From NCBI GenBank assembly GCA_017962745.1, contig JAGCUR010000018.1, forward strand, positions 127,088 through 191,087: a stretch of 64,000 nucleotides of DNA. Reading direction: 5' to 3'. The position numbers and the translations under genes are program-made. Under the pieces are notes generated by a model. It did not search any database. It saw nothing but the letters and a program-made list of their open reading frames with translations, and was not told where the DNA came from. The stretch is from Bacilli bacterium (GTDB taxonomy: Bacteria; Bacillota_I; Bacilli_A; ML615J-28; CAG-698). This document shows, piece after piece, positions 2,296 through 50,471 of the stretch (the stretch's first letter is position 1; each line of letters begins with the position of its first letter).

Positions 2296-3576
2296 ATGAA
2301 AAAATTATTTAAAATATTAGGTATTATAATCGGATCAATCGTGATGATATTTTTAGTGTTAGCAATGTTAAATGTAATTTCTAGCTTAACACTTAAAAAT
2401 TACATTCGTACTTTTGATAAAGTAGAATATGCTAACCAATTAGTACCAGTAGTTGATGATGATGGTCATTATACATTTACTACTGATGGTGATTTTAGAA
2501 TTATGCAATTAAATGATTTGCATATTGCTGGAGGTCACTATTCACTTAAAAAAGATAAGAAAACAATCTATGAAGTAATGACTATGGTGCAAATTGAAAA
2601 ACCAGATTTAGTAATTCTAAATGGTGATAGTGTATTCTGTGTACCAGGACCACTTTTTGGTGGAGGTAGTAGTTTTAATAACAAAATGGCATCACGTAGA
2701 GTCCTAGATATTTTTGAAAAGCTAGGTGTATATTTTACTGTTGCCTTTGGTAATCACGATACAGAAGCATTTGATTATTATAACCGTGCCCAAATCGGTA
2801 AACTATATATGAAAGATAGATACCAATATTGTATATTCCAATCTGAATTTGATGGATATGGTGTTACTAACCAGTGTATTAAACTAGAAGATAGCGCTGG
2901 TAACTTAAGAAAAGCAATTATGGTATTTGATTCTAATGATTATATCGATACATCGCTAAAAGCATCAATGAACTGGTGGTATGATGTAATCCATGATGAA
3001 CAAGTACAGTGGGCAAAAGAAACTCTTCTTAGTTTAGGAGATGGCGTTAACCCTGCTAAATCATTATTCTTTTTCCATATCCCAACAGGTGAATTCGAAC
3101 AAGCATACCGTAACCTAGCTGCTAATAACTTCAACGATACAGCTGATACTAAATATATTAGCGGTGTATGGGATGAATTAGTTGACCCAGAAATGGGTGG
3201 AAGGATTTGGTATGGCGGCTGCCAAAAGAAAGATGTAGCGCCTAATGATAACGATAATTTATTTGAAGAATTAGGCCCAAGCGGTATTAATTCACTTGAA
3301 GCTATCTTTGTAGGTCATGACCACGTTAATAATGCGGTTGTGGAATACAAAGGAGTAATCCTTGCTTATGGTATGTCACTAGATAATACAGCATACAAAG
3401 ATATTAACTTATCAGGCCGCCAAAGAGGTGCCATGATTGTAACAGTTAAAAATGATAATACATTTACAATTGATCACAAAAATGCATATCTTGATTATGG
3501 CGTTGATGCTAATAAGTTTTATAATGTTTATTTAGATAAATATTTATATCCAGATTACGTTCCAACTAACAGGTAA
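2296..3576 (+). CDS. Membrane-anchored calcineurin-like metallophosphoesterase
   Basis: N-terminal TM helix. The GNHD/GNHE and VGHDH motifs of the metallophosphatase fold are present. Confidence 0.7.
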   Translation: MKKLFKILGIIIGSIVMIFLVLAMLNVISSLTLKNYIRTFDKVEYANQLVPVVDDDGHYTFTTDGDFRIMQLNDLHIAGGHYSLKKDKKTIYEVMTMVQIEKPDLVILNGDSVFCVPGPLFGGGSSFNNKMASRRVLDIFEKLGVYFTVAFGNHDTEAFDYYNRAQIGKLYMKDRYQYCIFQSEFDGYGVTNQCIKLEDSAGNLRKAIMVFDSNDYIDTSLKASMNWWYDVIHDEQVQWAKETLLSLGDGVNPAKSLFFFHIPTGEFEQAYRNLAANNFNDTADTKYISGVWDELVDPEMGGRIWYGGCQKKDVAPNDNDNLFEELGPSGINSLEAIFVGHDHVNNAVVEYKGVILAYGMSLDNTAYKDINLSGRQRGAMIVTVKNDNTFTIDHKNAYLDYGVDANKFYNVYLDKYLYPDYVPTNR

Positions 3577-3580
3577 TAAT

Positions 3581-6022
3581 ATGAAACAAATAATTTATGC
3601 ATCTAGCACTAAAGATATTAAAGAGCTAGAATTAGATAACCGAAAATTAGCGCTAGAGTGCGCAAAAGAAGCCATCGTTTTATTAAAAAATGATGGCATT
3701 TTGCCATTAAAGGATCAAAAAATTGCTTTGTTTGGAAGTGGTGCCAAAAAGACTATTAAAGGTGGCACCGGATCTGGTGAAGTAAATGAAAGATATAGTG
3801 TATCAATTTATAGTGGTTTACTAAATAAAGGCTTTATCATTACATCAAACAAATGGCTTGATGATTATGATTTAGAATATAGCGATGAACTAGCTATCTT
3901 CAATCATATGAAGATGAATCCATTCACGATCTTTAATGATGCAATCGGCCAGTTTTCATATCCATTTGGTAGAGAAATCAATGATACTGATATCGATGGT
4001 GAAACGGAAACTGCCATTTATGTAGCTAGCCGTCAAGCCGGTGAAGGTAAAGATAAAAGATTAGATAATGGTGATTATAATTTAGTTGATATTGAAATTA
4101 AGAATTTAGAATTCTTAAAGAAAAACTATAAATCAGTAATTCTTGTTATCAATTCAGGCTCAGGAATGGATTTATCGAATATTGAACACCTAGATTTAAA
4201 TGCCATTTTATATGTTAATGGTTTAGGTGAAGAAGGTGGAAATGCTTTTGCTAGCATTATTAAAGGGGAAGCATCGCCTTCTGGCCATTTATCATCTAGT
4301 TGGCCATTAAGTTATAAAGATATTCCAAACGGGGATGAATATAGTTATTTAGGTGATTTAGCTAAAGAAGAATATAAAGAAGATATTTATGTCGGGTACC
4401 GTTACTTTGATACTTTTAAAGTAAAAACTAGATATTGCTTTGGATACGGCTTATCTTACTCAGAATTTGAATGTAAATATCTTAACTTTAAAGTCGAAGG
4501 TGAGACAATCAGTTATGATTGCATGGTTAAGAATTTAGGACCATGTAAAGCTAAATACTTAGAGCAGTGCTATATCTCAATGCCAAATGGCAAACTTAAA
4601 AAAGAATATCGCCGACTCGTTGCTTTTAAAAAGACTAAAGAATTAGAAGTAGGCGAGCAAGACACTCTTCATTTAAGTTTTAATATTAAAGATGCAGCTT
4701 CATTTGACACATCTAAAGCAAGTTACATTTTGGAAAAAGGCTTATATTTAATTTGGAGCGGTAAAGATATCGATAACTCTAAGATAATTTATGGGGCTAA
4801 CTTAGATAAAACATATTATCCATATAAGTTAGCTAATCTAGTTAAACTAGAAGAAGATATTAAACTTTTAGAGCCAGAATTTAATAATGAATATAATATT
4901 CCTAGTAACCTAGAAATATTGAATATCAGTGGCGTAGAAGAAATTGAAGTAAGCTATGATTTACCAAAATATAAATTTAGTGAAGAAGTTAATAGATTAT
5001 TAGAAAAATTAACTACGAACGAAAAGATTGATTTATGTGTTGGTATGGGAATTAAAGGTATGATGGATTCAGCTGGTATTTATACCCCAGGTGCTGTTGG
5101 TAAAACAACAACTAGCCTATTTGATAAAGGTATTATTAATCTTAATCTATGCGATGGACCAGCGGGCTTGCGTATTTTAAGAGAATCAGCTTTAAATAAA
5201 AGACATAAATTAAAGATGGTTAAAGGAAACTGGCCAACTGGTATTATGGAAAGATTACCTGACTTTCTAGTTAAACCATTCTTAGCTAAAGAAAAAGATA
5301 ACCACTTATACCAATTTACAACGGCATTTCCGGTAGGAACTAGCCTTGCGCAAACATTTAATGAAGAGCTTTGCTGTGAAGTAGGTTATGCGATTTCTAA
5401 AGAGATGGCTGAATATGGCATTACTTACTTTTTAGGACCAGCTTTAAATATTCATCGTAATCCGCTGTGCGGAAGAAACTTTGAATATTATTCTGAAGAC
5501 CCAGTCTTAAGTGGCAAGATTGCAAGGTGCATAGTAGAAGGCATTACAAAAATTGAAGGTAACTATGCTACCATCAAGCATTTTGCTTGCAATAACGCCG
5601 AAGACAATCGTCAACATTCTAATAGTATAGTTTCAGAAAGAGCTTTAAGAGAAATATACTTAAAAGGATTTGAGATTTGTGTTAAAGGATCTAGGGTAGA
5701 TGCTTTAATGTCAAGCTATAATATTATAAATGGCGCTTATGCTGGTAATAGATATGATCTGAACCAACAAATCTTAAGATGCGAATGGGGCTATAGTGGA
5801 CTAGTTATGACTGACTGGTTTGAAACAGGAGGCGATAGGGCTAACGATGCAACTGCAATTGCAAGTGGCGTTGATCTAATCATGCCTGGTGCCAAAAGCG
5901 CTAAGAAGATGATTAAAAAAGGTCTAAAGAATGGTATGGTTAGTATTAATGATTTAAATAGGGCAGCAAGCTTAATCATTAAACAAATGTTAGAGTCTTT
6001 AGTTTATAAAAATATGGAGTAA
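3581..6022 (+). CDS. Glycoside hydrolase family 3 beta-glucosidase-like enzyme with permuted domain order
   Basis: The GEGKDKR...L motif of the GH3 C-terminal sandwich domain sits near aa 150. The KHF...GYSGLVMTDW nucleophile motif of the GH3 barrel is near the C-terminus. Confidence 0.75.
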   Translation: MKQIIYASSTKDIKELELDNRKLALECAKEAIVLLKNDGILPLKDQKIALFGSGAKKTIKGGTGSGEVNERYSVSIYSGLLNKGFIITSNKWLDDYDLEYSDELAIFNHMKMNPFTIFNDAIGQFSYPFGREINDTDIDGETETAIYVASRQAGEGKDKRLDNGDYNLVDIEIKNLEFLKKNYKSVILVINSGSGMDLSNIEHLDLNAILYVNGLGEEGGNAFASIIKGEASPSGHLSSSWPLSYKDIPNGDEYSYLGDLAKEEYKEDIYVGYRYFDTFKVKTRYCFGYGLSYSEFECKYLNFKVEGETISYDCMVKNLGPCKAKYLEQCYISMPNGKLKKEYRRLVAFKKTKELEVGEQDTLHLSFNIKDAASFDTSKASYILEKGLYLIWSGKDIDNSKIIYGANLDKTYYPYKLANLVKLEEDIKLLEPEFNNEYNIPSNLEILNISGVEEIEVSYDLPKYKFSEEVNRLLEKLTTNEKIDLCVGMGIKGMMDSAGIYTPGAVGKTTTSLFDKGIINLNLCDGPAGLRILRESALNKRHKLKMVKGNWPTGIMERLPDFLVKPFLAKEKDNHLYQFTTAFPVGTSLAQTFNEELCCEVGYAISKEMAEYGITYFLGPALNIHRNPLCGRNFEYYSEDPVLSGKIARCIVEGITKIEGNYATIKHFACNNAEDNRQHSNSIVSERALREIYLKGFEICVKGSRVDALMSSYNIINGAYAGNRYDLNQQILRCEWGYSGLVMTDWFETGGDRANDATAIASGVDLIMPGAKSAKKMIKKGLKNGMVSINDLNRAASLIIKQMLESLVYKNME

Positions 6023-26775: not shown

Positions 26776-28425
26776 ATTTAGACTACGTATGAACAGAGGC
26801 GCTATCAAATAACTGGGGGTTTTGATAAATAACCCTATAAAATAAGTGGGGGTCAAAAACACCTATAAAATTGATGGGGGTCGAAATAAGCCCGTTTCCA
26901 AATTAGGAAACGGGCTTTTTGTCAACCATTATAACTCATTTATGATAATTTCTAATTGGTGTATCCTTGTTTACAGCAAACATACACCTATTTCTAAATC
27001 TATCAAAGTTTTTATATCCATTGGCTGATTTAAGTATTATTTTAAGACGAGAATTGCAGCTTTCTATTTTTCCATTGGACAATCTTTTGCCTTTAACAAA
27101 CACGAATGAATTTTTGATTTCGTATTTCCATCTAATAATCATTTTTGTGAATTCATAGAATTCTGGTATACCTGAATTTGAGAATTTATATATTAAATCC
27201 TCAAAATCTTCCTCAAAATTATTGATATCGCAGTAATAATTAAACTCGCGATAATCTTCGGCTAAATTATATGCTTTTGTTAACTCTCCATCTATGGCTT
27301 TCAAGTATCCCAAAATTGTAAGTTTGTCCCATTTTGTTCTAATCTTATTAACGTTCCAAAGTTTATCTTCGAGTTTTGCATATGGTGTTTTAAAAAAGAA
27401 GTGAAACTTTTTAAGCATATAATAATACATATCAGCATTTTCTAATTTCGAATGACCCTTATCAAACTTTTTCATTGTTCTCAGTCTTACCATATCGACA
27501 GCTATGTTAAGGTGTTGTAAAACGTGAAATGAATCAACAGCAACTAATGCGTTTGGAAAAAGATCATTAGCAACTCTTTTATAAGAGTCCCACATATCCA
27601 TAACGATGTACTTAACGTTTTTTCGCTCATTTAAAGGTATTCTATATAAATTTTGAAGTAATGATAAATAATGCCTAGTTGGATAGATGTCAATAATATT
27701 ACCATTAAAGAAGTTAAGAAGAACACAGATATATTTATCCGGTTTCATATTCTTAGTATATATTTCATCCATGCATATTACTTCAGAAAGGGGCAATCTT
27801 TTACAGCTAACGTACTTATCGAATATATTAATGACAGATTGCGATGTAATTGAAAATAGTTTCGCAACACTAATGAAAGTAGCAGTATGGCTTCTAAGTT
27901 TTTCTAGTACTAGTAGATCGGTTTGCAAAGATACTTTTTCATCTTTTTGGCAAAACGGATTATTTTCATAGAAAATAGAGCCACACATCTTACATTTAAA
28001 TCTTCGAGATTTATATTTTAAAATACAAGGTTTATCTATTAATAAAGAATGCTTAATAGATTTAATTCTATAATCGTGTATGCAACAATCAGTACATCCA
28101 CATTTTGGGCAAGTAGCAATATTGTTCTTTAATACGACATAATAAATAATGGTATTGTTTTCCTTAATGAGCGTAGATTTATCTAAATCTATATTATAAG
28201 TTTCTAAATTTAGCAATTTTATGATATCATAATTCATGAAGACCTCCTTTTTTTTAATTGGTTGACACTCAATTATATCAAAAAAAGGTCTTCCTTTTTT
28301 TTACAAAAAAAGAGGCTATCAAGAGATGGGGGTCACCCCCAAGAAATTGATAGCCTATGCTTGACCCCCAAGAAATTTATATAACCTGAACAGTTAAGTG
28401 CTCGTTTATACGTAGTTTTTATTTG
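26776..28425 (-). mobile_element. ISL3-family insertion sequence. Ends are approximate: inner inverted repeats GGC(G)CTATCAA...TGGGGGT and outer ACTACGTAT are both seen.
   Basis: Single 433-aa ISL3 transposase ORF flanked by inverted sequence. Left end gaggcgctatcaaataactgggggtt (26794-26819); right end tgacccccaagaaattgatagcc (28337-28360) read on the other strand. Further outer ACTACGTAT/ATACGTAGT inverted pair at 26783-26791 and 28404-28412. Confidence 0.5.
26936..28237 (-). CDS. ISL3-family transposase
   Basis: N-terminal zf-ISL3 (CPKCGCTDCC...CKMCG) followed by the DDE region typical of IS204/IS1001/IS1165-type transposases, about 430 aa. Confidence 0.8.
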   Translation of the reverse strand: MNYDIIKLLNLETYNIDLDKSTLIKENNTIIYYVVLKNNIATCPKCGCTDCCIHDYRIKSIKHSLLIDKPCILKYKSRRFKCKMCGSIFYENNPFCQKDEKVSLQTDLLVLEKLRSHTATFISVAKLFSITSQSVINIFDKYVSCKRLPLSEVICMDEIYTKNMKPDKYICVLLNFFNGNIIDIYPTRHYLSLLQNLYRIPLNERKNVKYIVMDMWDSYKRVANDLFPNALVAVDSFHVLQHLNIAVDMVRLRTMKKFDKGHSKLENADMYYYMLKKFHFFFKTPYAKLEDKLWNVNKIRTKWDKLTILGYLKAIDGELTKAYNLAEDYREFNYYCDINNFEEDFEDLIYKFSNSGIPEFYEFTKMIIRWKYEIKNSFVFVKGKRLSNGKIESCNSRLKIILKSANGYKNFDRFRNRCMFAVNKDTPIRNYHK

Positions 28426-42168: not shown

Positions 42169-42279
42169 TCCAAAGCTTTTAATTATAAATATTATTTATC
42201 AACCTAAAAATAAAAATAAGTTTAAATAATTTATAAAAAAAGGTATAATCTAAATAGATAGTATTATATAAGGGAAAGT

Positions 42280-43581
42280 ATGCAAACTGATAATAAAAAA
42301 TCGCTAAAGGAATATTTTCATAATTATTTTAAAACTAAAAAAGAAGAAATAAGAAATTATGGAAAAGCTAACTTGATTAAAAGACTAATTACGATTGGGG
42401 TTACATTAGTACTTGCCGTTCTATTCATTGTAATCTTTGGTAAAACTACCTATTATAAAAATGAATATACCATTATCATGAATGAAACATATGGTATTTA
42501 TGGTAAACTAATTAAAGCTAAAGTAACTTCAATTGATGATATTTATTACCCGAGTGAAGATGAAAGATTAGATTATACAATTAGAATTACCTTTACTGCG
42601 GAAATCTTAAAAGGTGATAAAAAAGGTCAGTCAGTAGAAGTAATGCAATATTTAAATGATTATACTAGTCATTTTTATAAACAAGTAAAAGATGGTAAAA
42701 GAATATATATCGTAGAAGAAAATACAGCCGAAAATGGGGAACCAACATATTACTTTGCGGGGGACTCATTAAGCTATAACCACTGGGGTGGTATTATCGC
42801 TTTAGTTTCGATATTAATAATTTTATTATTAATAATATCGAAGAGTAAAGGCTTGTTAACGATTATATCGTTAGCCTTAACGGCATTAGTAATTGTATTT
42901 GTATTACTGCCATCAATTATTAACGGTATTAATATTTATTTATTAGTATTAATCTGTGCTATTTATGTAATAGCGGTAACGTTTATATTAGTAGTTGGCA
43001 TAAACAAAAAATGTTTATGTGCAAGCCTTGGTTGTTTTAGTGGTTTACTTTTAAGCGGATTACTTGCCTTAATTACTTTAAGAATCATTAATGCAACTGG
43101 ATATTATTACCAAGAAGGCGTAGAAGATGTAGTAATGTTATTCCAAACATCATATAACGCCGATATTATCATTGATCTTAAGGGCTTAGTATTTGCTTCC
43201 ACTATCATCGGTGCCTTAGGCGCCGTAATGGATGTTAGCTTATCACTATCTAGTGCTTTAAAAGAAGTATATGATAATAGTAAAGAGACATCCTTAATCA
43301 ATACAATCAAAAGTGGTTTTACGATTGGTAAAGATATGATTGGTACGATGGTTAATACGCTAATACTTGCGTATGTGGCATCCGACTTAACGTTTATTTT
43401 ATGGATAATGGAACATAGAAGTAACGGCTTCATTTTCCAAAGTGAATATATCGCAGTTGCCATTGCCCAAGCGTTAGTTGGCGCTATTGCGATGGTACTT
43501 ACTATCCCACTAACATCAATCATTTGTGCATTTGTTTACAATAAAAAAAATAAAAATAAAGAATTATTGGAGGAGGAGTAA
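42280..43581 (+). CDS. YibE/F-like polytopic membrane protein
   Basis: N-terminal TM helix, about 110-aa extracytoplasmic domain, then about 7 TM helices. This architecture is typical of YibE/F, but the family call is tentative. Confidence 0.4.
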   Translation: MQTDNKKSLKEYFHNYFKTKKEEIRNYGKANLIKRLITIGVTLVLAVLFIVIFGKTTYYKNEYTIIMNETYGIYGKLIKAKVTSIDDIYYPSEDERLDYTIRITFTAEILKGDKKGQSVEVMQYLNDYTSHFYKQVKDGKRIYIVEENTAENGEPTYYFAGDSLSYNHWGGIIALVSILIILLLIISKSKGLLTIISLALTALVIVFVLLPSIINGINIYLLVLICAIYVIAVTFILVVGINKKCLCASLGCFSGLLLSGLLALITLRIINATGYYYQEGVEDVVMLFQTSYNADIIIDLKGLVFASTIIGALGAVMDVSLSLSSALKEVYDNSKETSLINTIKSGFTIGKDMIGTMVNTLILAYVASDLTFILWIMEHRSNGFIFQSEYIAVAIAQALVGAIAMVLTIPLTSIICAFVYNKKNKNKELLEEE

Positions 43582-45882
43582 ATGAAAAAATTTCCTAGAG
43601 TTATGAAGCGAATAATGATTTTCACTCTTTTCGCTACATTATTTGCTTCATTAGTTGTGTTTGGCTTTGGCGTCAAAGCTGCAAACATTGACATTAAAGG
43701 TGTTGACATTATTTATAGCAATCCTGGTGAGGACTGCTCAACACAAATTACTATTTCATGGCATGCAAAATCTAGGTATTCTACTTTAATTTATACATTA
43801 AAGAGCGACCCTACTTATGCCTTCGCTACTAGTATGCTAGTAACTGGTATTTATGATGAATCATCATTCTTCCACTATGATGTGGCAAAATTCTATAAAT
43901 GTACAGTTCCACTAAAGGATTTAGATCCTGATACTGAATACATTTATAAGATTAGATGTGATGACTATACATCTGAACAATACACATTTAGAACAGCTGG
44001 TGCATCAGAATTCACATTTGCTTACATGAGCGATATTCATGCAATTCCATATGATGACCTAGAACTAGGTATGACAGCTGTTAAGAAACTTAAAACTGTG
44101 CAAACATTATTAGAAAAAGCAGAAGATGTAAATGATACAAGACTTTCATTTATCATTACGACTGGGGACGAAACTTGGAGAGGTAGCCAATACTCTAACT
44201 GGCTAGAATGGAGTAAGACACAATTTACTTCTGCTCGTAAAGATTATTTATGGTTATCTTGCCCTGGTAACCACGAATACTATACGCAAACAACCAACTC
44301 AATTTGGAATTATTATCCAGATAAGTATTCATCTAACCCAAGTGCCATTTATGATGATCCAGAATATTTCTATAATACATATTTTAATTCGGTAAAAGCA
44401 GTACCAAAGAATGGTCCTGAAGGTATCCCATCAAGTTATTATACGCTTTATAATAATATTTTATTCATCTGTATCGATAGTATGCAAGTTGGTGACTACG
44501 GCAAACTTAACGAAACTCGTGCTTGGTTTGAAAGAGTAATGCAGAAGAACGAAGGTAAATACCAATACATTATCGTTTACCAACACTATCCATGGTATGA
44601 TTTCGTAACTGGCGAAGATAAATATGCTTATAGATGGCGTGATTTATTCGATAAATATGGTGTAGACTTAGCATTAAGTGGCCACATGCATGGCTATTTA
44701 AGAACTAAGACTTTATATGATGGTAAAGTTACAACTGAAGAAAAGAAAGGTACAGTTTATGTAGTATCACCTCAAATCGGTGATAGACCAAAAGTAACTT
44801 CAGGCGATCAAAACAAAAACTTAATCGCTTACCGTGAATCAACTAAAACTTGGACAGACTATTCTGCCATCTCTACAATCACAGTTACAAATGAAGGCCT
44901 AACTTATAAACTAATCGATGTAGATGGAAAAGTAAGAGATACATTTACAATTGAAGCAAGACGTGCATCAACTATTTCTGAAAGCCACAAAAATAGCATC
45001 ATTGATAGCCTGACTTTCTCTGGAACACCTGATTCAATCGTTTGTGATTTCAAGAGTTCTTATAGCTTATATGTAAAGAACATTAAAGTAGAAGCAGGTG
45101 GCAAGAGCGGCGAAGTTAACCCATCTGAACAAAAAACAGGCTACGTTGCTGCTAAAGGTTTAGCTAATAACACATTATATGATGCAAAAGTAACAATTAC
45201 ATTCATCGATGATTCTACATACACTACTTCAGCTAGCGTAGTAACTAGCGGTACATTTGGTTTAATCAATAACTTAAAAGCAAATGTAGTTAACGATAAG
45301 ATGAATATCAACTGGAATGTAAGCGATGCAAGCTTAGTAGATCAATATAAGATTTATATTAACGATGAGCTTGAAGGTACATCGACTACTAACTCTTATG
45401 AAATTGATAAGAGTAGAGTAGAATTTAGCACTAAATATACTCTAGAAGCTTACAAAGATAATAAGTTATTATTCCATAAAGATTTCTATTACGGCGTATA
45501 TGGTGATGTTAACCTAGATGGTAGCATTAACGATAACGACGTTAAGAAATTAATTGAATTAATCTTTGCGGGCTACGTTTTTAATAGCGGAGCTATTAAA
45601 TTACTAGATAACAATAACGATGGAATCGTTGATATCGGCGATGCATTTAAGATTTTAGCTTACCAAAATGAACGCGTTGAACATTTAGTTTATAACGAAT
45701 ATGAAGTTACATTTGTTGGCTACTCAGGTAATGCTTTAGCTAGAGTAAAAGTGCTAGAAGGTGAAGATGCGGTAGCCCCTGAAGCACCAACTATTACTGG
45801 TTATACATTTGTTGGCTGGAGCGTATCTTATACAAACGTAAATTCTAACTTAATCGTTAGAGCAATTTATGAGGCTAATTAG
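43582..45882 (+). CDS. Secreted purple-acid-phosphatase-like metallophosphoesterase with dockerin and Listeria-Bacteroides repeat domains
   Basis: Signal peptide, FN3-like N-domain and metallophosphatase motifs (GDETW, GNHEY, GHMHGY). A dockerin duplicated Ca-binding segment (DVNLDGSINDNDVKKL / LDNNNDGIVDIGDAFKIL) and a C-terminal flg_new repeat (YEVTFVGYSG...ITGYTFVGW) are also present. Confidence 0.7.
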   Translation: MKKFPRVMKRIMIFTLFATLFASLVVFGFGVKAANIDIKGVDIIYSNPGEDCSTQITISWHAKSRYSTLIYTLKSDPTYAFATSMLVTGIYDESSFFHYDVAKFYKCTVPLKDLDPDTEYIYKIRCDDYTSEQYTFRTAGASEFTFAYMSDIHAIPYDDLELGMTAVKKLKTVQTLLEKAEDVNDTRLSFIITTGDETWRGSQYSNWLEWSKTQFTSARKDYLWLSCPGNHEYYTQTTNSIWNYYPDKYSSNPSAIYDDPEYFYNTYFNSVKAVPKNGPEGIPSSYYTLYNNILFICIDSMQVGDYGKLNETRAWFERVMQKNEGKYQYIIVYQHYPWYDFVTGEDKYAYRWRDLFDKYGVDLALSGHMHGYLRTKTLYDGKVTTEEKKGTVYVVSPQIGDRPKVTSGDQNKNLIAYRESTKTWTDYSAISTITVTNEGLTYKLIDVDGKVRDTFTIEARRASTISESHKNSIIDSLTFSGTPDSIVCDFKSSYSLYVKNIKVEAGGKSGEVNPSEQKTGYVAAKGLANNTLYDAKVTITFIDDSTYTTSASVVTSGTFGLINNLKANVVNDKMNINWNVSDASLVDQYKIYINDELEGTSTTNSYEIDKSRVEFSTKYTLEAYKDNKLLFHKDFYYGVYGDVNLDGSINDNDVKKLIELIFAGYVFNSGAIKLLDNNNDGIVDIGDAFKILAYQNERVEHLVYNEYEVTFVGYSGNALARVKVLEGEDAVAPEAPTITGYTFVGWSVSYTNVNSNLIVRAIYEAN

Positions 45883-45891
45883 GAGGATAAC

Positions 45892-46668
45892 ATGAGAAAA
45901 ATTAAACTTGTTCTTGTTTTTATTCTAGCTATTTTTAGTCTTGGCTTAATTGCTTGTGGAGAAGGTGGAAATACTGAAATTGATTGGAGTAAAAAGACCG
46001 TAAGTGGTATTTCTCCAGTTAAAGAAACATTTTATGCTAAATACGAATATGATGAATTTGAACTATCAATGCTTAAGATTCATGTAGAATATACTGATGG
46101 AACTAGTAGAGATATACCAGTTACTGAAGAAATGCTAGATGAAAAAGATATTCGTAAACTTAAAACAGTTGGTAAACCACGTATTACAATTTATTATGAT
46201 GCATTTGATCTACAAATGTCAGTAAATATCATTGACTCAAGTAGACTTGATGAAAACTTAAACCCAGATGGTGAATATGCTTGTGTAATTAAAGCCATCC
46301 GTGATCAAGAAGCAGGTATCATCAACTTCATATTTGAAGGTAATGAAAACTATGATGTTTGTGCAATGAGCTTTGCATATAGCTATGATAATAGCTTAAT
46401 GCAACTTAGCAATGCTAAGATGAATGAAGCATTAACTGGTATTGGTGATGTGCAAGTAGTAGATGGTAAAGTAATGTTTGCTTACACTGAATCAGGGACT
46501 GCTTTAGAAGGCGAAATTATATTATTTACAGTTAACTATACTGGTGACTTCCGTAACAGTAAGTTAGGAGCAGCAGAAGACTTTAATAATGTAGTTTACC
46601 TTGCAAACTTCACTGATTTCTCTACTACCCTTGCTGATAATGTTTTATATCATGCATCAGTAAAATAA
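45892..46668 (+). CDS. Lipoprotein (possible cohesin-like partner of the upstream dockerin protein)
   Basis: Lipobox LGLIAC, 258 aa, beta-rich C-terminal 140 aa. Starts 9 bp after the dockerin protein with a strong RBS. Confidence 0.5.
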   Translation: MRKIKLVLVFILAIFSLGLIACGEGGNTEIDWSKKTVSGISPVKETFYAKYEYDEFELSMLKIHVEYTDGTSRDIPVTEEMLDEKDIRKLKTVGKPRITIYYDAFDLQMSVNIIDSSRLDENLNPDGEYACVIKAIRDQEAGIINFIFEGNENYDVCAMSFAYSYDNSLMQLSNAKMNEALTGIGDVQVVDGKVMFAYTESGTALEGEIILFTVNYTGDFRNSKLGAAEDFNNVVYLANFTDFSTTLADNVLYHASVK

Positions 46669-46685
46669 ATACTTATAAAAAAATA

Positions 46686-46730
46686 AAGTTCTAGATTATG
46701 AAAGTCTTTCATAATTTAGAACTTTTTTAT
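46686..46730 (+). terminator. Rho-independent terminator (20-bp stem)
   Basis: aaagttctagattatgaaag / ctttcataatttagaacttt near-perfect hairpin followed by T6. Confidence 0.7.
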
Positions 46731-46764
46731 ATAATGTATATAGTTAGTTTTAAATGGAGTATTT

Positions 46765-47631
46765 ATGGAAAAAGTATTGATCATTTATTTTAGTGGTATG
46801 GGTAATACTAAACTACTTGCTAATATGGCTAAGGATGAATTCCTCGCTAAAGGCTATGATACAAAAGTGGTAGATGTATGTAGCGATGAAGTGGTTGAAA
46901 TTAATGACTATAACTATCTAGTTGTAGCATACCCAATATATGCCTTTAATGCTCCAGGGCCTATTATTAGTTATATTAAGAAATTTAATAAAATTAATAA
47001 TGATCTTAAATGTTTAATTTTAAAAGATTCCGGTGAATACCTTTTCTGGAACAATGCTTCAAGTTTGCAACTTACTAGCATTTTAAAGAGAAAAGGAATA
47101 AAGATATTTAGTGAATATCATTATTTATTACCTTATTCATTTGTTTTTAGACATACAGACTATATGGCATATAAAATGCTATATACGCTTAAATATTTAC
47201 TGCCTTTAGATATTGATGATTTTCTAGGCGGTAAATATCATAAGCTTGATAGGTTTTTCTTAGATAGGCCCTTTAGTTTTGTTTTTAGAATCCAACGCTT
47301 TGGGGGTAGACTTAACGGTAGATTTTATAAAGTAGATCAAGAAAAGTGTATTAAGTGCAATAAATGCATTAATAACTGTCCAGCTAATAACATTAAAATC
47401 AAAGATGATAAATTTATTTTTGGTGGAAAATGCTTAATGTGTCAACGTTGCGTTGTAAACTGTCCGCATACTGCTATTAAAGCCGGCTTCTTTAAAAGGT
47501 GGATGGTTGGTGGCGCTTACTCGTTTAGAGAAACAACAGAGTTTGAAGTAGAAAAGAAACCAAAATACTGTGCAAAAAGTTATAAGAAATATTTTGAAGA
47601 AAGTGTAAAGCGAGGTAACAAAATTGTCTAA
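46765..47631 (+). CDS. Flavodoxin-like domain fused to a 2x[4Fe-4S] ferredoxin domain (EFR1-type)
   Basis: N-terminal flavodoxin fold (KVLIIYFSGMGNTK). C-terminal CIKCNKCINNCP and CLMCQRCVVNCP ferredoxin motifs. Confidence 0.65.
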   Translation: MEKVLIIYFSGMGNTKLLANMAKDEFLAKGYDTKVVDVCSDEVVEINDYNYLVVAYPIYAFNAPGPIISYIKKFNKINNDLKCLILKDSGEYLFWNNASSLQLTSILKRKGIKIFSEYHYLLPYSFVFRHTDYMAYKMLYTLKYLLPLDIDDFLGGKYHKLDRFFLDRPFSFVFRIQRFGGRLNGRFYKVDQEKCIKCNKCINNCPANNIKIKDDKFIFGGKCLMCQRCVVNCPHTAIKAGFFKRWMVGGAYSFRETTEFEVEKKPKYCAKSYKKYFEESVKRGNKIV

Positions 47632-48067
47632 ATTATTTATTTATTATTCAAATACTGGTAGTGGTGATGCAGTAGCAAGCAAATTAGCTACTTTAGGATA
47701 TGAAATAAGAAAAGTTACTCCTAAAAAAGATTTACCAAAAGCATTCTTTTTTAAAGTAATGAGCGGTGGCTTTTTAGCTAGTCTAAATGCTAAAGCTAAA
47801 CTTAACGAATTTGATGCAAATATTGAAGGTTACGAAGAAGTTGTAATTGGTTCCCCTATTTGGAATGGAAGACTTTCTACACCTATTAATACAGTATTAT
47901 CTCTTTTAGATTTAAATGGTAAAAATGTATCATTTATACTGTATGCAGGAAGTGGTGCTGCCAAGGCTGCACCAAAACAAATCAAAAAATTTGTAAGTGA
48001 AGCTAAGATTACTATCCTGAAAGAACCTAAGAAATATCCAGAAGAATTAGAAAAGATTGGTGAATAA
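47624..48067 (+). CDS. Short-chain flavodoxin-like protein (TTG start)
   Basis: 147 aa, flavodoxin-type N-terminus (KLFIYYSNTGSGDAVASKLA). TTG start with GAGGT RBS, overlapping the previous gene by 8 bp. Confidence 0.55.
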   Translation: MSKLFIYYSNTGSGDAVASKLATLGYEIRKVTPKKDLPKAFFFKVMSGGFLASLNAKAKLNEFDANIEGYEEVVIGSPIWNGRLSTPINTVLSLLDLNGKNVSFILYAGSGAAKAAPKQIKKFVSEAKITILKEPKKYPEELEKIGE

Positions 48068-49438
48068 ATGTATAAAAAAGTAAAAGATTATATCGAAACA
48101 ATAGATGGCATATCTCATACTACCTTTGATCCGCACGGACCAGGAGTAGTAAGGATTCACCTAGTACCACCCGAAAAGATTAAACTCGGTTTAGCTTGGA
48201 CCATTATTTTAAATGGTCAAGATGTAATACCTATTACCTTTGGTTGGGCAGTATTACTGCGTGAATTTATTAATGCTGTTAACAAAAGAAGTGGCGTAGC
48301 TTTAGAAGATGAAGAAATTGCCCATATCATTAATGAAGCAATTGAAGCTGCTAGTAAAGTATTTGATAAGACTAACAAAAAGACCCTTCGTGCCGATTTA
48401 AAACAAATCGTAGAAACATTAACTAAGATTGCAAGAAAAGAAAAGATATCTGAGATAATAGAATATGCACCTTTATCTACATATGCTAAATACATGGCTG
48501 CTCCGCACAGAATGGATTTAATGATTTCCGCCATGAGCAAAAATGGGGCTTGGCATTGTAATCAAAAATGTTTAAATTGTTATGCGGCAGGGCAGATTCA
48601 AGCAAATGTAGAAGAAATTGATACTGAAAGTTGGAAGAAAATTATTGATAAATGCAAAGCTTCCATGATTCCTCAATTAACATTTACTGGTGGAGAGCCT
48701 ACACTAAGATCAGATTTAGTAGAACTTGTTAATTATTCACAGTGGTTTGTAACCCGCCTTAATACTAATGGGCAGCTATTATCTAAAGAGTTATGTGCTA
48801 AGTTATATGAAGCAAGCCTTGATAGTGTTCAAGTAACACTATATTCACATAAAAAAGAAATTCATAACTTTCTAGTTGGCGCCGATGGTTTTGATAAAAC
48901 CATTGAGGGCATTAAAAATGCGATTGATGCTAGGTTAAATGTTAGCATCAATACACCATTATGTGATCTAAATAAAGATTATGTGGATATGGTTAAATAT
49001 GCTCATGAAGTGCTAGGTGTTAATTATTTCACATGTTCTGGTTTAATTTTAACTGGTAATGCTACGGATACTGCTAATTCTAGATTATCTAAAGCAGAAA
49101 TCTTAAATGTTTTAAAAGAAGCTAAAGCGTATACTGATTCAAATAATTGCGAATTATCATTTACATCGCCTGGTTGGATTGATAGCGATATTTTAAGAAA
49201 GATGAAAATGATGGTGCCTTCTTGTGGAGCATGTTCATCAAATATGGCTATTACGCCAAATGGCATGGTAGTACCTTGCCAAAGTTGGCTTTCAGATACC
49301 CCACTTGGTAACATGCTAACTGATGAATGGAAAAAGATTTGGAATAGTAGAAGATGTGTAAAGTTAAGAAAAGAAAATTCTAAAGCTAATGATTTATGTC
49401 CATTAAGCGGTAGAATTGAGGGTGAAGTAAATGAGTAA
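48068..49438 (+). CDS. Radical SAM enzyme with C-terminal SPASM/twitch domain and a 160-aa N-terminal extension
   Basis: CNQKCLNCY (CX3CX2C) at aa about 164 and a GGEPTL SAM motif. The C-terminal Cys-rich region (CSGLIL...SCGACSS...VPCQSW...CVKL...CPLSG) is typical of SPASM auxiliary clusters. Confidence 0.75.
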   Translation: MYKKVKDYIETIDGISHTTFDPHGPGVVRIHLVPPEKIKLGLAWTIILNGQDVIPITFGWAVLLREFINAVNKRSGVALEDEEIAHIINEAIEAASKVFDKTNKKTLRADLKQIVETLTKIARKEKISEIIEYAPLSTYAKYMAAPHRMDLMISAMSKNGAWHCNQKCLNCYAAGQIQANVEEIDTESWKKIIDKCKASMIPQLTFTGGEPTLRSDLVELVNYSQWFVTRLNTNGQLLSKELCAKLYEASLDSVQVTLYSHKKEIHNFLVGADGFDKTIEGIKNAIDARLNVSINTPLCDLNKDYVDMVKYAHEVLGVNYFTCSGLILTGNATDTANSRLSKAEILNVLKEAKAYTDSNNCELSFTSPGWIDSDILRKMKMMVPSCGACSSNMAITPNGMVVPCQSWLSDTPLGNMLTDEWKKIWNSRRCVKLRKENSKANDLCPLSGRIEGEVNE

Positions 49439-50471
49439 TATTAAGAAGTTATTGGTATTTATCATTCTTTCCTTAAGCTTAGTTTTTGCTTTCTCATTTA
49501 GTAAAGTTAAAGCATATAATGATTTAGATCATATTGAATTATATGAGATTAAAGTAACACCCGTTAAAGATGATGGTAGCCTAAATATTGAAATCCATAT
49601 TATTTGGGAAGTATTAGATAGTTATACTGATGGTCCATTAGAATGGATTAAAGTAGGTATACCTAATTACCATGCGAAGGACATTAAAGCATTAAGTGGT
49701 GGAATTAGAAAGATAAAGTATTATTCAGATAGTGGATCATACATTAGAATTGATTTTTCTAATAGCCATTATGAAGGTGAAAAGATTGATATTCGCTTTA
49801 GTTATAATCAATCATACATGTATCATCTAAATGAAGAATATGTGGTTTATGATTATCATCCTGGTTGGTTTGATGATATCAAAGTAGATATGTGTAATCT
49901 TTATTGGGCTAAAGATGGTGTAGATCAAATAGCAGATGGCATAACTACTGCAAGTGGTGTAACATTTAGCGAAGAAGATGGTTATTATAAACTATCTAGT
50001 CCACTAAATTATGGTGGAACGATAAAAATGAGGCTTCGCTATGCTAATAATTACTTTAGTGAACTTGATCCAAAGAAAGAATATACTGATAAATATGTTA
50101 AACCAGTAACTATTATTTTAATTGTAGCAGCAATTGTTACCTTTTTAGCAATAGTAATTGCTCTATATTACTATCAAAAGAATAATCAAGATCCATATAT
50201 GAATGAAAGAGGATTTTGTACAGGTTATTACCATTGGTATTTATTTGGTAGACCTCACCATTATTATGGAAAAACAGTTAATAGTAAAGGTGCAAGAATC
50301 GTAAATCCATCTTCTAGCAGTGGAAGCCATGGTGGATTTAGCGGTGGTGGCGGCTGTGCTTGTGCATGTGCTTGCGCATGCGCTGGTGGCGGAAGAGCTG
50401 GATGCTCGAAAAAAGACTTTTACAATACTAACTTGTCAAGCGAAAAAGTATTAAAAGAGTTAGAAAAGTAA
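49431..50471 (+). CDS. DUF2207-like membrane protein with cytoplasmic Gly/Cys-Ala repeat tail
   Basis: Signal peptide, extracytoplasmic beta-rich domain and one TM helix. Cytoplasmic tail ...SSSSGSHGGFSGGGGCACACACACAGGGRAGCS. Overlaps the rSAM gene by 8 bp. Confidence 0.5.
   Translation: MSNIKKLLVFIILSLSLVFAFSFSKVKAYNDLDHIELYEIKVTPVKDDGSLNIEIHIIWEVLDSYTDGPLEWIKVGIPNYHAKDIKALSGGIRKIKYYSDSGSYIRIDFSNSHYEGEKIDIRFSYNQSYMYHLNEEYVVYDYHPGWFDDIKVDMCNLYWAKDGVDQIADGITTASGVTFSEEDGYYKLSSPLNYGGTIKMRLRYANNYFSELDPKKEYTDKYVKPVTIILIVAAIVTFLAIVIALYYYQKNNQDPYMNERGFCTGYYHWYLFGRPHHYYGKTVNSKGARIVNPSSSSGSHGGFSGGGGCACACACACAGGGRAGCSKKDFYNTNLSSEKVLKELEK
50355..50384 (+). repeat. Hexanucleotide (TGY-GCW)x5 in-frame microsatellite encoding (Cys-Ala)5
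   Basis: The sequence tgtgcttgtgcatgtgcttgcgcatgcgct lies within the 49431 ORF. Confidence 0.8.

Follow-up and report, generated by a model that had tools for sequence, protein, structure and literature searches.

Based on the analysis reported here, we suggest that two adjacent genes in a 64-kb window from an uncultured rumen Bacilli bacterium (contig JAGCUR010000018.1, positions 127,088 to 191,087; the window is this whole stretch of 64,000 nucleotides (nt)) probably form a two-gene surface-tethering module, in which the dockerin of an enzyme, encoded by open reading frame 1 (ORF1), is held by the cohesin of a lipoprotein, encoded by ORF2. In this model, ORF1 would be exported via Sec as a dinuclear metallophosphoesterase with the fold of a purple acid phosphatase (PAP), and its dockerin, together with calcium, would bind the type-I-like cohesin with which ORF2 ends. 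ORF2, in turn, would be lipid-anchored by Cys22 at the outer face of the cytoplasmic membrane, with an immunoglobulin (Ig)-like stalk that spaces the cohesin off the membrane, and translational coupling of the two genes would cause enzyme and anchor to be produced together. The outcome would be the hydrolysis of extracellular phosphate esters by an enzyme bound to the cell, beside the cell's own transporters. What the data described below establish is the identity of the domains, the presence of the lipobox, the folds of cohesin and dockerin, and the conservation of the pairing.

In public records, ORF1 is MBP5551635.1 ("metallophosphoesterase") and ORF2 is MBP5551636.1 ("hypothetical protein"). 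Both lie on the plus strand, which holds nearly all genes of the window (~32% G+C), and the ORF listing places them where a preliminary description of this DNA had put them, with 9 bp (45883-45891) between them. That description had also raised the idea of a cohesin-dockerin pair, which is now supported by sequence, fold and synteny.

The dockerin and cohesin domains and their parent proteins

Dockerins are recognized by two tandem repeats of ~22 residues, in each of which a 12-residue loop of the pattern D-x-[DN]-x-[DN]-G-x-[IV]-x-x-x-D precedes a helix. ORF1 has this arrangement: its calcium-binding loops, DVNLDGSINDND (amino acids (aa) 642-653) and DNNNDGIVDIGD (aa 676-687), lie 34 residues apart, and they are the sole such pair in a six-frame regular-expression scan of all 64 kb. 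In a single-sequence search of the PDB with the dockerin segment, the best match was a dockerin (2y3n_B, expectation (E) value 0.0017) and spanned both repeats. A profile of the segment built from the dockerins of nine partner enzymes (A3; the partner enzymes are described below) matched the ScaH dockerin of Ruminococcus flavefaciens (8ajy_B) with E 8e-7 and aligned end to end with many dockerins, including 1daq, 4fl4_A, 2mte, 5m2s_B, 2ccl_B and 2vn6_B. EF-hand proteins (SCaMC-1, secretagogin) also score with this profile, but their matches are confined to one of the loops or a portion of the segment, while the full-length matches are dockerins. In the AlphaFold2 model of ORF1 (predicted local distance difference test score (pLDDT) 88.8, predicted template-modelling (TM) score 0.83), the three-helix dockerin layout is seen at aa 651-662, 669-675 and 685-695 with a pLDDT of about 88-95. 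Matches to Pfam Dockerin_1 (PF00404) are recorded for 9/32 full-length ORF1 homologues, and every one of the 12 partner enzymes has a dockerin. In 11 of these, both repeats are conserved; in the remaining enzyme, that of locus L009, the regular expression matches the second repeat only and the first repeat is degenerate. At loop positions 10-11, repeat 1 of ORF1 reads D-N, which varies in relatives, and repeat 2 reads I-G within the conserved VDIGDA[FY]. Because the two repeats differ at these recognition positions, the dockerin would have a single binding mode via the second repeat. Dockerins bind cohesins with high affinity in a calcium-dependent manner, and the binding of ORF1 to the cohesin would likewise depend on calcium.

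The cohesin fold is a nine-stranded flattened beta-sandwich (jelly-roll) of ~140 residues, and this fold is found at the C-terminus of ORF2. In an AlphaFold2 model of ORF2 generated from the alignment (pLDDT 87.7), the helix of the signal peptide leads via a disordered linker (aa 18-27) into a beta domain (aa 33-118), which is followed by an all-beta domain (aa 124-258); the last of these, ~135 aa of beta-strand, agrees with the beta-rich C-terminus described earlier from sequence. The lack of a cohesin-like fold had been named in the preliminary description as the result that would speak against a pair. When this was checked by a structure search of the PDB with Foldseek, ranks 1-24 were all cohesins (E 6e-6 to 1e-4, target TM 0.5-0.63), among them 4ums, 1aoh, 4fl4_C, 6kgf, 4dh2, 2ccl_A and 1g1k. 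Next in score were the non-cellulosomal cohesins of Archaeoglobus fulgidus (2xdh, 12.0) and Clostridium perfringens (2vo8, 11.4); type II and type III cohesins scored ~10 and other beta-sandwiches ≤9.7. Among 34 full-length homologues of ORF2, Pfam Cohesin is the commonest match (16/34 at E <0.1, best E 1.6e-5), and one homologue (P0018) alone passes the Cohesin cut-off with 25.6 vs 24.1 bits, the other matching homologues reaching 16-19 bits. Thus, the cohesin call for ORF2 is based on both the Pfam profile matches and the fold. Three motifs of the domain are near-invariant in the 34 homologues, i.e. IKAIR (aa 133-137, 46288-46302), YTGDFRNSKL (aa 216-225, 46537-46566) and VLYHASVK (aa 251-258, 46642-46665). 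Cohesins bind dockerins via the face made up of strands 8-3-6-5, and the three motifs may belong to this binding surface or to the opposite sheet.

The remainder of ORF2 would serve as anchor and stalk. The protein starts with MRKIKLVLVFILAIFSLGLIAC, and its lipobox, which the preliminary description had recognized, has the context MRKIKLVLVFILAIFSLGLIA-C22 and conforms to the pattern [LVI][ASTVI][GAS]C with an invariant cysteine; Cys22 is invariant in 34/34 aligned homologues and in every copy at the loci described below. From the sequence, Cys22 is predicted to be lipidated. For the beta domain that follows, Pfam Big_3 matches 12/34 homologues (best E 4e-4), and the match of the family profile in the PDB is a Big_3-type domain (2l7y_A, E 0.11).

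The N-terminal half of ORF1 has the two domains that define PAPs, an FN3-like N-terminal domain (Pfam Pur_ac_phosph_N, aa 48-138, 36.2 bits) and a metallophosphatase alpha/beta sandwich (Pfam Metallophos, aa 145-372, 61.3 bits; the fold extends to ~aa 465). They are preceded in the model by a helix (aa 4-28) and a low-confidence linker (aa 27-32) in the signal peptide region. The metal-ligand motifs are D151-x-H153, G-D196, G-N230-H-E, H335 and G-H368-x-H370, and D151, H153, D196, N230, H231, H335 and H370 are invariant across 32 homologues. The top Foldseek matches are plant PAPs (1xzw, kidney-bean PAP and lupin PPD1; E ~3e-22, target TM 0.73), with wheat PAP phytase at E ~1e-20; with phmmer, wheat PAP phytase (6git) gives a weak match (E 7e-6) in which H335 and G-H368-x-H370 align. 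The seven-ligand set of PAPs is incomplete, though. The GDxxY motif reads G-D196-E-T-W199, so that Trp199 replaces the Fe(III)-binding tyrosine, a position that is not conserved among relatives either (Ser in L003), and motif I is D-x-H, as in general metallophosphoesterases. Thus, of the earlier label "purple-acid-phosphatase-like", the fold holds, and "purple" does not strictly apply because the tyrosine ligand is absent. Based on sequence and model, ORF1 is predicted to be a PAP-fold dinuclear metallophosphoesterase, whose substrate would be a phosphate ester. It is plausible that the predicted enzyme scavenges phosphate in the rumen, with phytate, nucleic acids and phospholipid head groups as candidate substrates. 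In the catalytic domain, a segment with many Tyr, Asn and Pro residues (aa 235-275, 44284-44406) is inserted after the GNHE motif, ahead of the next strand of the core, and is modelled with low confidence (pLDDT 52-70); 18 of its residues are missing in the L003 orthologue. The insertion may represent a variable loop close to the active site with a bearing on substrate choice.

Between the catalytic unit and the dockerin are two Ig/FN3-like spacers, the second of which joins the dockerin without a linker. Pfam matches in this region are faint (Big_7, DUF4625 and Ybfg_C), and some homologues have precomputed fn3 matches. The Listeria-Bacteroides repeat after the dockerin, which had been noted before, is confirmed by Pfam Flg_new (aa 707-747, 27.5 bits vs a cut-off of 27); it has four strands in the model, and its PDB matches are to the repeat region of internalin B (E 0.17-1). 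Shorter relatives of ORF1 (420-520 aa) from Bacteroidales and spirochaetes consist of the catalytic core alone, and others have different C-terminal modules. These differences suggest that the C-terminal region serves as a localisation device that can be exchanged.

Conservation of the gene pair and competing explanations

We examined 13 distinct loci from metagenome-assembled genomes (MAGs) of rumen and gut Bacilli, i.e. the window, L001, L003, L005, L007-L013, L014 and L015. In 12 of them, a dockerin-bearing PAP-type enzyme of 730-787 aa is encoded immediately upstream of a lipoprotein of the ORF2 family, with gaps of 1-13 bp in all paired loci (9 bp in the window, 3 bp in L015). The paired loci include L001 and L005; L003, which has different flanks; L007-L011, from GTDB representative genomes of rumen "Bacilli bacterium" and "Bacillota bacterium" MAGs; and L012 and L013, in which the lipoprotein was assigned to the family by hhalign with probabilities of 97.6% and 100%. 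The identity of the enzymes to the window copy goes down to 29-34%, and the flanking genes vary between loci. Ten pairs of enzyme and lipoprotein homologues have longest contigs of the same size; seven of these lie beyond the inspected loci and are probably also paired. Some MAGs hold several pairs (L008 and L010 in Tb.RUG.122; L009, L011 and L013 in JAZLLM01), and the paralogous lipoproteins within one genome each have their own enzyme neighbour. The family is small: among 5.8 billion proteins, 36 were found to be homologous to ORF2, all of them metagenomic and either unnamed or "hypothetical", and a broadened profile yields 40 clusters. The binding of the two proteins, its calcium dependence and stoichiometry, the surface location of the enzyme and its substrate are inferred.

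Several observations weigh against the model, and some of them bear on the alternative that the two proteins are a true dockerin protein and a true cohesin protein but not partners of each other, so that a scaffoldin encoded elsewhere or other dockerin clients would serve them and their adjacency would reflect co-regulation. In L014 (6001-6771, plus strand), a distant lipoprotein (28% identity) has no phosphatase within 6 kb. In L013 (9206-11383, plus strand; JAZLLM01), the lipoprotein gene is followed by one for a second PAP-type enzyme of 725 aa, which comes without a separate lipoprotein gene. Moreover, the contig is at least 227 kb long and could hold other cohesin or dockerin genes outside the window. 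By contrast, the pair is kept at 1-13 bp in 12 of the 13 loci while its surroundings change, paralogous lipoproteins in one genome each retain their own enzyme, and the tiny lipoprotein family is co-extensive with the clade of dockerin-bearing enzymes. Also, neither the six-frame motif scan nor Pfam and NCBIfam scans of ~39 ORFs detected a further dockerin or cohesin in the window, as expected from the earlier remark that no other cellulosome genes were in view. We therefore consider it unlikely that the two proteins serve other partners. The L014 lipoprotein, encoded on a 457-kb contig, is the sole unpaired copy found; it has the lipobox LIGC and keeps the motifs YTGDFRNSGL and VYHVSRK. The second L013 enzyme has a degenerate dockerin repeat 2 (GDNEFNLIDATIIN) and is followed by a hairpin instead of a lipoprotein gene, and L013 thus has one cohesin beside two dockerin-type enzymes.

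The other unfavourable observations concern the sequences of the domains, the position of the dockerin and the genomic setting. Pfam Dockerin_1 matches ORF1 at aa 640-688 with 12.6 bits (E 0.16), below the cut-off of 22.9. As a consequence, the earlier term "textbook dockerin" stands with regard to the paired calcium-loop repeats and the profile matches to solved dockerins, and is slightly overstated for the window copy because its score with the hidden Markov model is sub-threshold. In ORF2, Pfam Cohesin gives a faint match (aa 155-201, 13.2 bits vs a cut-off of 24.1); together with a faint Big_3 match, this is all that Pfam detects, with nothing significant, and an NCBIfam scan adds no match. 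Searches of PDB sequences by phmmer with ORF2, the 34-sequence profile and P0018 returned no solved cohesin, only weak matches to 2l7y and noise. Because these sequence searches missed the cohesins in the PDB, we regard ORF2 as belonging to a divergent cohesin family that is recognized mainly by its fold. The same results could be read to mean that the dockerin-like segment is a structural calcium element of the EF-hand type, that the lipoprotein belongs to an unrelated kind of beta-sandwich surface protein (for example, adhesins or substrate-binding modules), and that its likeness to cohesins is at the level of the fold only. Set against the end-to-end alignments with dockerins and the uninterrupted run of cohesins at the top of the structure search, this explanation is in our view highly improbable. 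The dockerin of ORF1 is also atypical in its internal position, directly after an Ig-like domain and ahead of the Flg_new domain, and these flanking domains could occlude or alter its binding face. In a mirror-tree comparison of 11 pairs, distances correlate for all regions (r 0.6-0.92) and the value for dockerin and cohesin (0.79) equals that for dockerin and Big_3 (0.79), i.e. there is no dockerin-cohesin-specific signal over the control regions in these 11 pairs. Finally, no phosphate-regulon genes are present near the pair.

A third alternative accepts the contact between cohesin and dockerin and holds that the lipoprotein, rather than anchoring the enzyme for display, assists its export or folding as a chaperone, or inhibits it so that the phosphoesterase is kept inactive at the membrane. 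The ORF1 stop codon TAG (45880-45882) overlaps the AGGAGG of ORF2, and this overlap with the ribosome-binding site would couple the translation of the two genes, with enzyme and anchor made together. Such tight coupling is typical of enzyme-immunity and chaperone pairs, and the data that speak for display would fit regulation equally well. In the structural model, however, two Ig-like domains separate the dockerin from the active site and would place the cohesin far from the catalytic domain. Moreover, known cohesin-dockerin pairs act as tethers, and relatives that share the catalytic core have other surface or secretion modules in place of the dockerin, suggesting that localisation is the role that is exchanged. 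A chaperone or inhibitor thus appears to us to have next to no likelihood, and we favor the tethering model.

Operon signals and neighbouring genes

The features of the pair and its immediate surroundings are listed in the table.

Table. Position of the gene pair, its domains and adjacent elements within the window
Feature	Position	Strand	Description
YibE/F-like membrane protein gene	42280..43581	+	Pfam YibE_F, 207 bits
ORF1	43582..45882	+	Predicted secreted PAP-type metallophosphoesterase with dockerin, 766 aa
Sec-type signal peptide, aa 1-33	43582..43680	+	Basic N-region, hydrophobic helix; predicted cleavage between VKA and A
Catalytic unit	43723..44976	+	FN3-like PAP domain and metallophosphatase domain
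Two Ig/FN3-like beta-sandwich spacers, aa 466-636	44977..45489	+	AlphaFold2 strand pattern
Dockerin module, aa 640-697	45499..45672	+	Repeat 1 GDVNLDGSINDNDVKKLIELI, repeat 2 LDNNNDGIVDIGDAFKILAY
Listeria-Bacteroides repeat (Flg_new) domain, aa 703-766	45688..45879	+	C-terminal, after the dockerin
Shine-Dalgarno sequence AGGAGG for ORF2	45881..45886	+	5 nt before the ATG at 45892
ORF2	45892..46668	+	Lipoprotein with cohesin domain, 258 aa
Lipoprotein signal peptide	45892..45957	+	Ends in lipobox L-I-A-C22
Ig-like (Big_3-like) stalk, aa 33-118	45988..46245	+	Pfam matches of homologues, profile, model
Cohesin domain, type-I-like, aa 124-258	46261..46665	+	All beta-strand, no helix
Terminator-like hairpin	46685..46735	+	19-bp stem, 3-nt loop, T-run; 17 nt past the ORF2 stop

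Terminator-like hairpins are consensus matches only, with 2 in the region vs 1.9 expected by chance. Likewise, the promoter-like site at 42221-42249 ahead of the YibE/F gene is a consensus match of a kind that occurs with a frequency not above chance. The YibE/F gene abuts ORF1, with its stop ending at 43581 and the ORF1 ATG at 43582, and may be co-transcribed with it as context rather than as part of the core module. It is present upstream of the pair in L001, L005, L007 and L008 and not in L003, L009-L013 and L015; its linkage to the pair is subclade-specific.

Downstream of the pair is a block of four genes (46765-50471, plus strand), which is also found in L001 (8936-12637) and L007 (5304-8767) and codes for a ferredoxin/flavodoxin of the EFR1 family and a small flavodoxin, as well as for a radical-SAM/SPASM enzyme and a membrane protein of 346 aa. 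The radical-SAM/SPASM enzyme fits no named subfamily (best NirJ2, 107 bits vs a cut-off of 500), the membrane protein, with the tail GGGGCACACACACAGGGRAGC, has no family match, and the block may represent a radical-SAM enzyme with its substrate protein. We rejected a functional link between the pair and these ferredoxin, flavodoxin, radical-SAM and membrane-protein genes, which are missing from most paired loci.

Elsewhere in the window, a second, unrelated calcineurin-like metallophosphoesterase of 426 aa (2296-3576, plus strand) has no dockerin and is encoded directly upstream of a family 3 glycoside hydrolase (GH) gene (GH3; 3581-6022, plus strand), whose domain order is permuted with the C-terminal domain first. 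The minus strand has few large genes, one of which codes for an ISL3-family transposase (DDE_Tnp_ISL3, E 2e-43; 26936-28237). With regard to a wall-less organism, the genes of the window are housekeeping genes and point neither way.

Relation to known cohesin-dockerin systems

Cohesin-dockerin pairing is known above all for holding cellulosomes together, in which a scaffoldin with at least two cohesins is combined with dockerin-bearing GHs. The pair described here is not cellulosomal: its single cohesin is part of a lipoprotein of 258 aa, a phosphoesterase takes the place of a GH as cargo, and the sole GH of the window, GH3, has no dockerin. If the tethering model is correct, lipoprotein anchors and hydrolases of phosphate esters also come within the reach of cohesin-dockerin pairing, in this case in poorly known, uncultured rumen Bacilli, and the model would explain how a phosphate-releasing enzyme is kept at the cell surface in a habitat rich in phytate and nucleic acids. 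Confirmation would also provide a function for a conserved family of hypothetical lipoproteins (~40 clusters). More tentatively, and with considerable doubt, we speculate that an exclusive one-to-one cohesin-dockerin tether with coupled translation is a general device for fixing exoenzymes to a membrane lipoprotein in uncultured rumen and gut Bacilli, in which the two to three paralogous pairs of one genome have diverged to mutually orthogonal specificities. If the model holds, small and divergent cohesin-dockerin pairs, possibly orthogonal ones, would become available for the engineering of protein assemblies, and if the pairs are indeed orthogonal, they would constitute a natural set of minimal, non-cross-reacting pairs on non-carbohydrate enzymes. 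In the searchable literature, we found nothing on a dockerin-bearing metallophosphoesterase or PAP, nor on dockerin, cohesin and metallophosphoesterase together.

Compared to known PAPs of plants and bacteria (kidney bean, sweet potato and wheat PAP phytase), ORF1 has the same FN3-like and metallophosphatase fold with aligned GNHE, H and GHxH motifs, while it differs in having Trp199 in place of the GDxxY tyrosine, the DxH motif I and ~300 extra C-terminal residues comprising the Ig-like, dockerin and Flg_new domains. Compared to cellulosomal type I pairs (CipA-Xyn10B of C. thermocellum, 1ohz; C. cellulolyticum, 2vn5), the pair lacks a multi-cohesin scaffoldin, a GH cargo and anchoring by surface-layer homology (SLH) domains or sortase. 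Moreover, the window copies are sub-threshold for Pfam Cohesin and Dockerin_1, and the binding mode would be single rather than dual.

Among non-cellulosomal systems, the parent proteins of cohesin and dockerin modules are mostly non-catalytic (PMC13487519). In the C. perfringens GH33 and GH84 proteins (2vo8, 2w1n and 2o4e), both modules are on large glycoside hydrolases or toxins that assemble together; by contrast to these and to the A. fulgidus cohesin (2xdh), the window has a dedicated small lipoprotein and one phosphoesterase in a conserved bicistron. In Cellulosilyticum lentocellum, the neighbouring genes for ClcC and ClcD (Clole_2599 and Clole_2598) encode one cohesin and one dockerin, and the two proteins were shown to form a heterodimer (PMC13487519). 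The design principle is similar in that adjacent genes code for a single-cohesin protein and a single-dockerin enzyme without a multi-cohesin scaffoldin. However, in ClcC/ClcD, for which binding has been demonstrated, the cohesin protein, which has a cellulose-targeting carbohydrate-binding module, carries a GH5 cellulase as cargo, whereas in the window, where the two proteins would bind each other, the cargo is a PAP-type enzyme with an internal dockerin and the cohesin is on a membrane lipoprotein with an Ig-like stalk. Because non-cellulosomal and minimal one-to-one pairs are already established, the window pair represents an extension of these systems and not a new mechanism. It differs from the known pairs in the phosphoesterase cargo, the lipoprotein anchor, the internal dockerin and the conserved, sometimes multi-copy bicistron.

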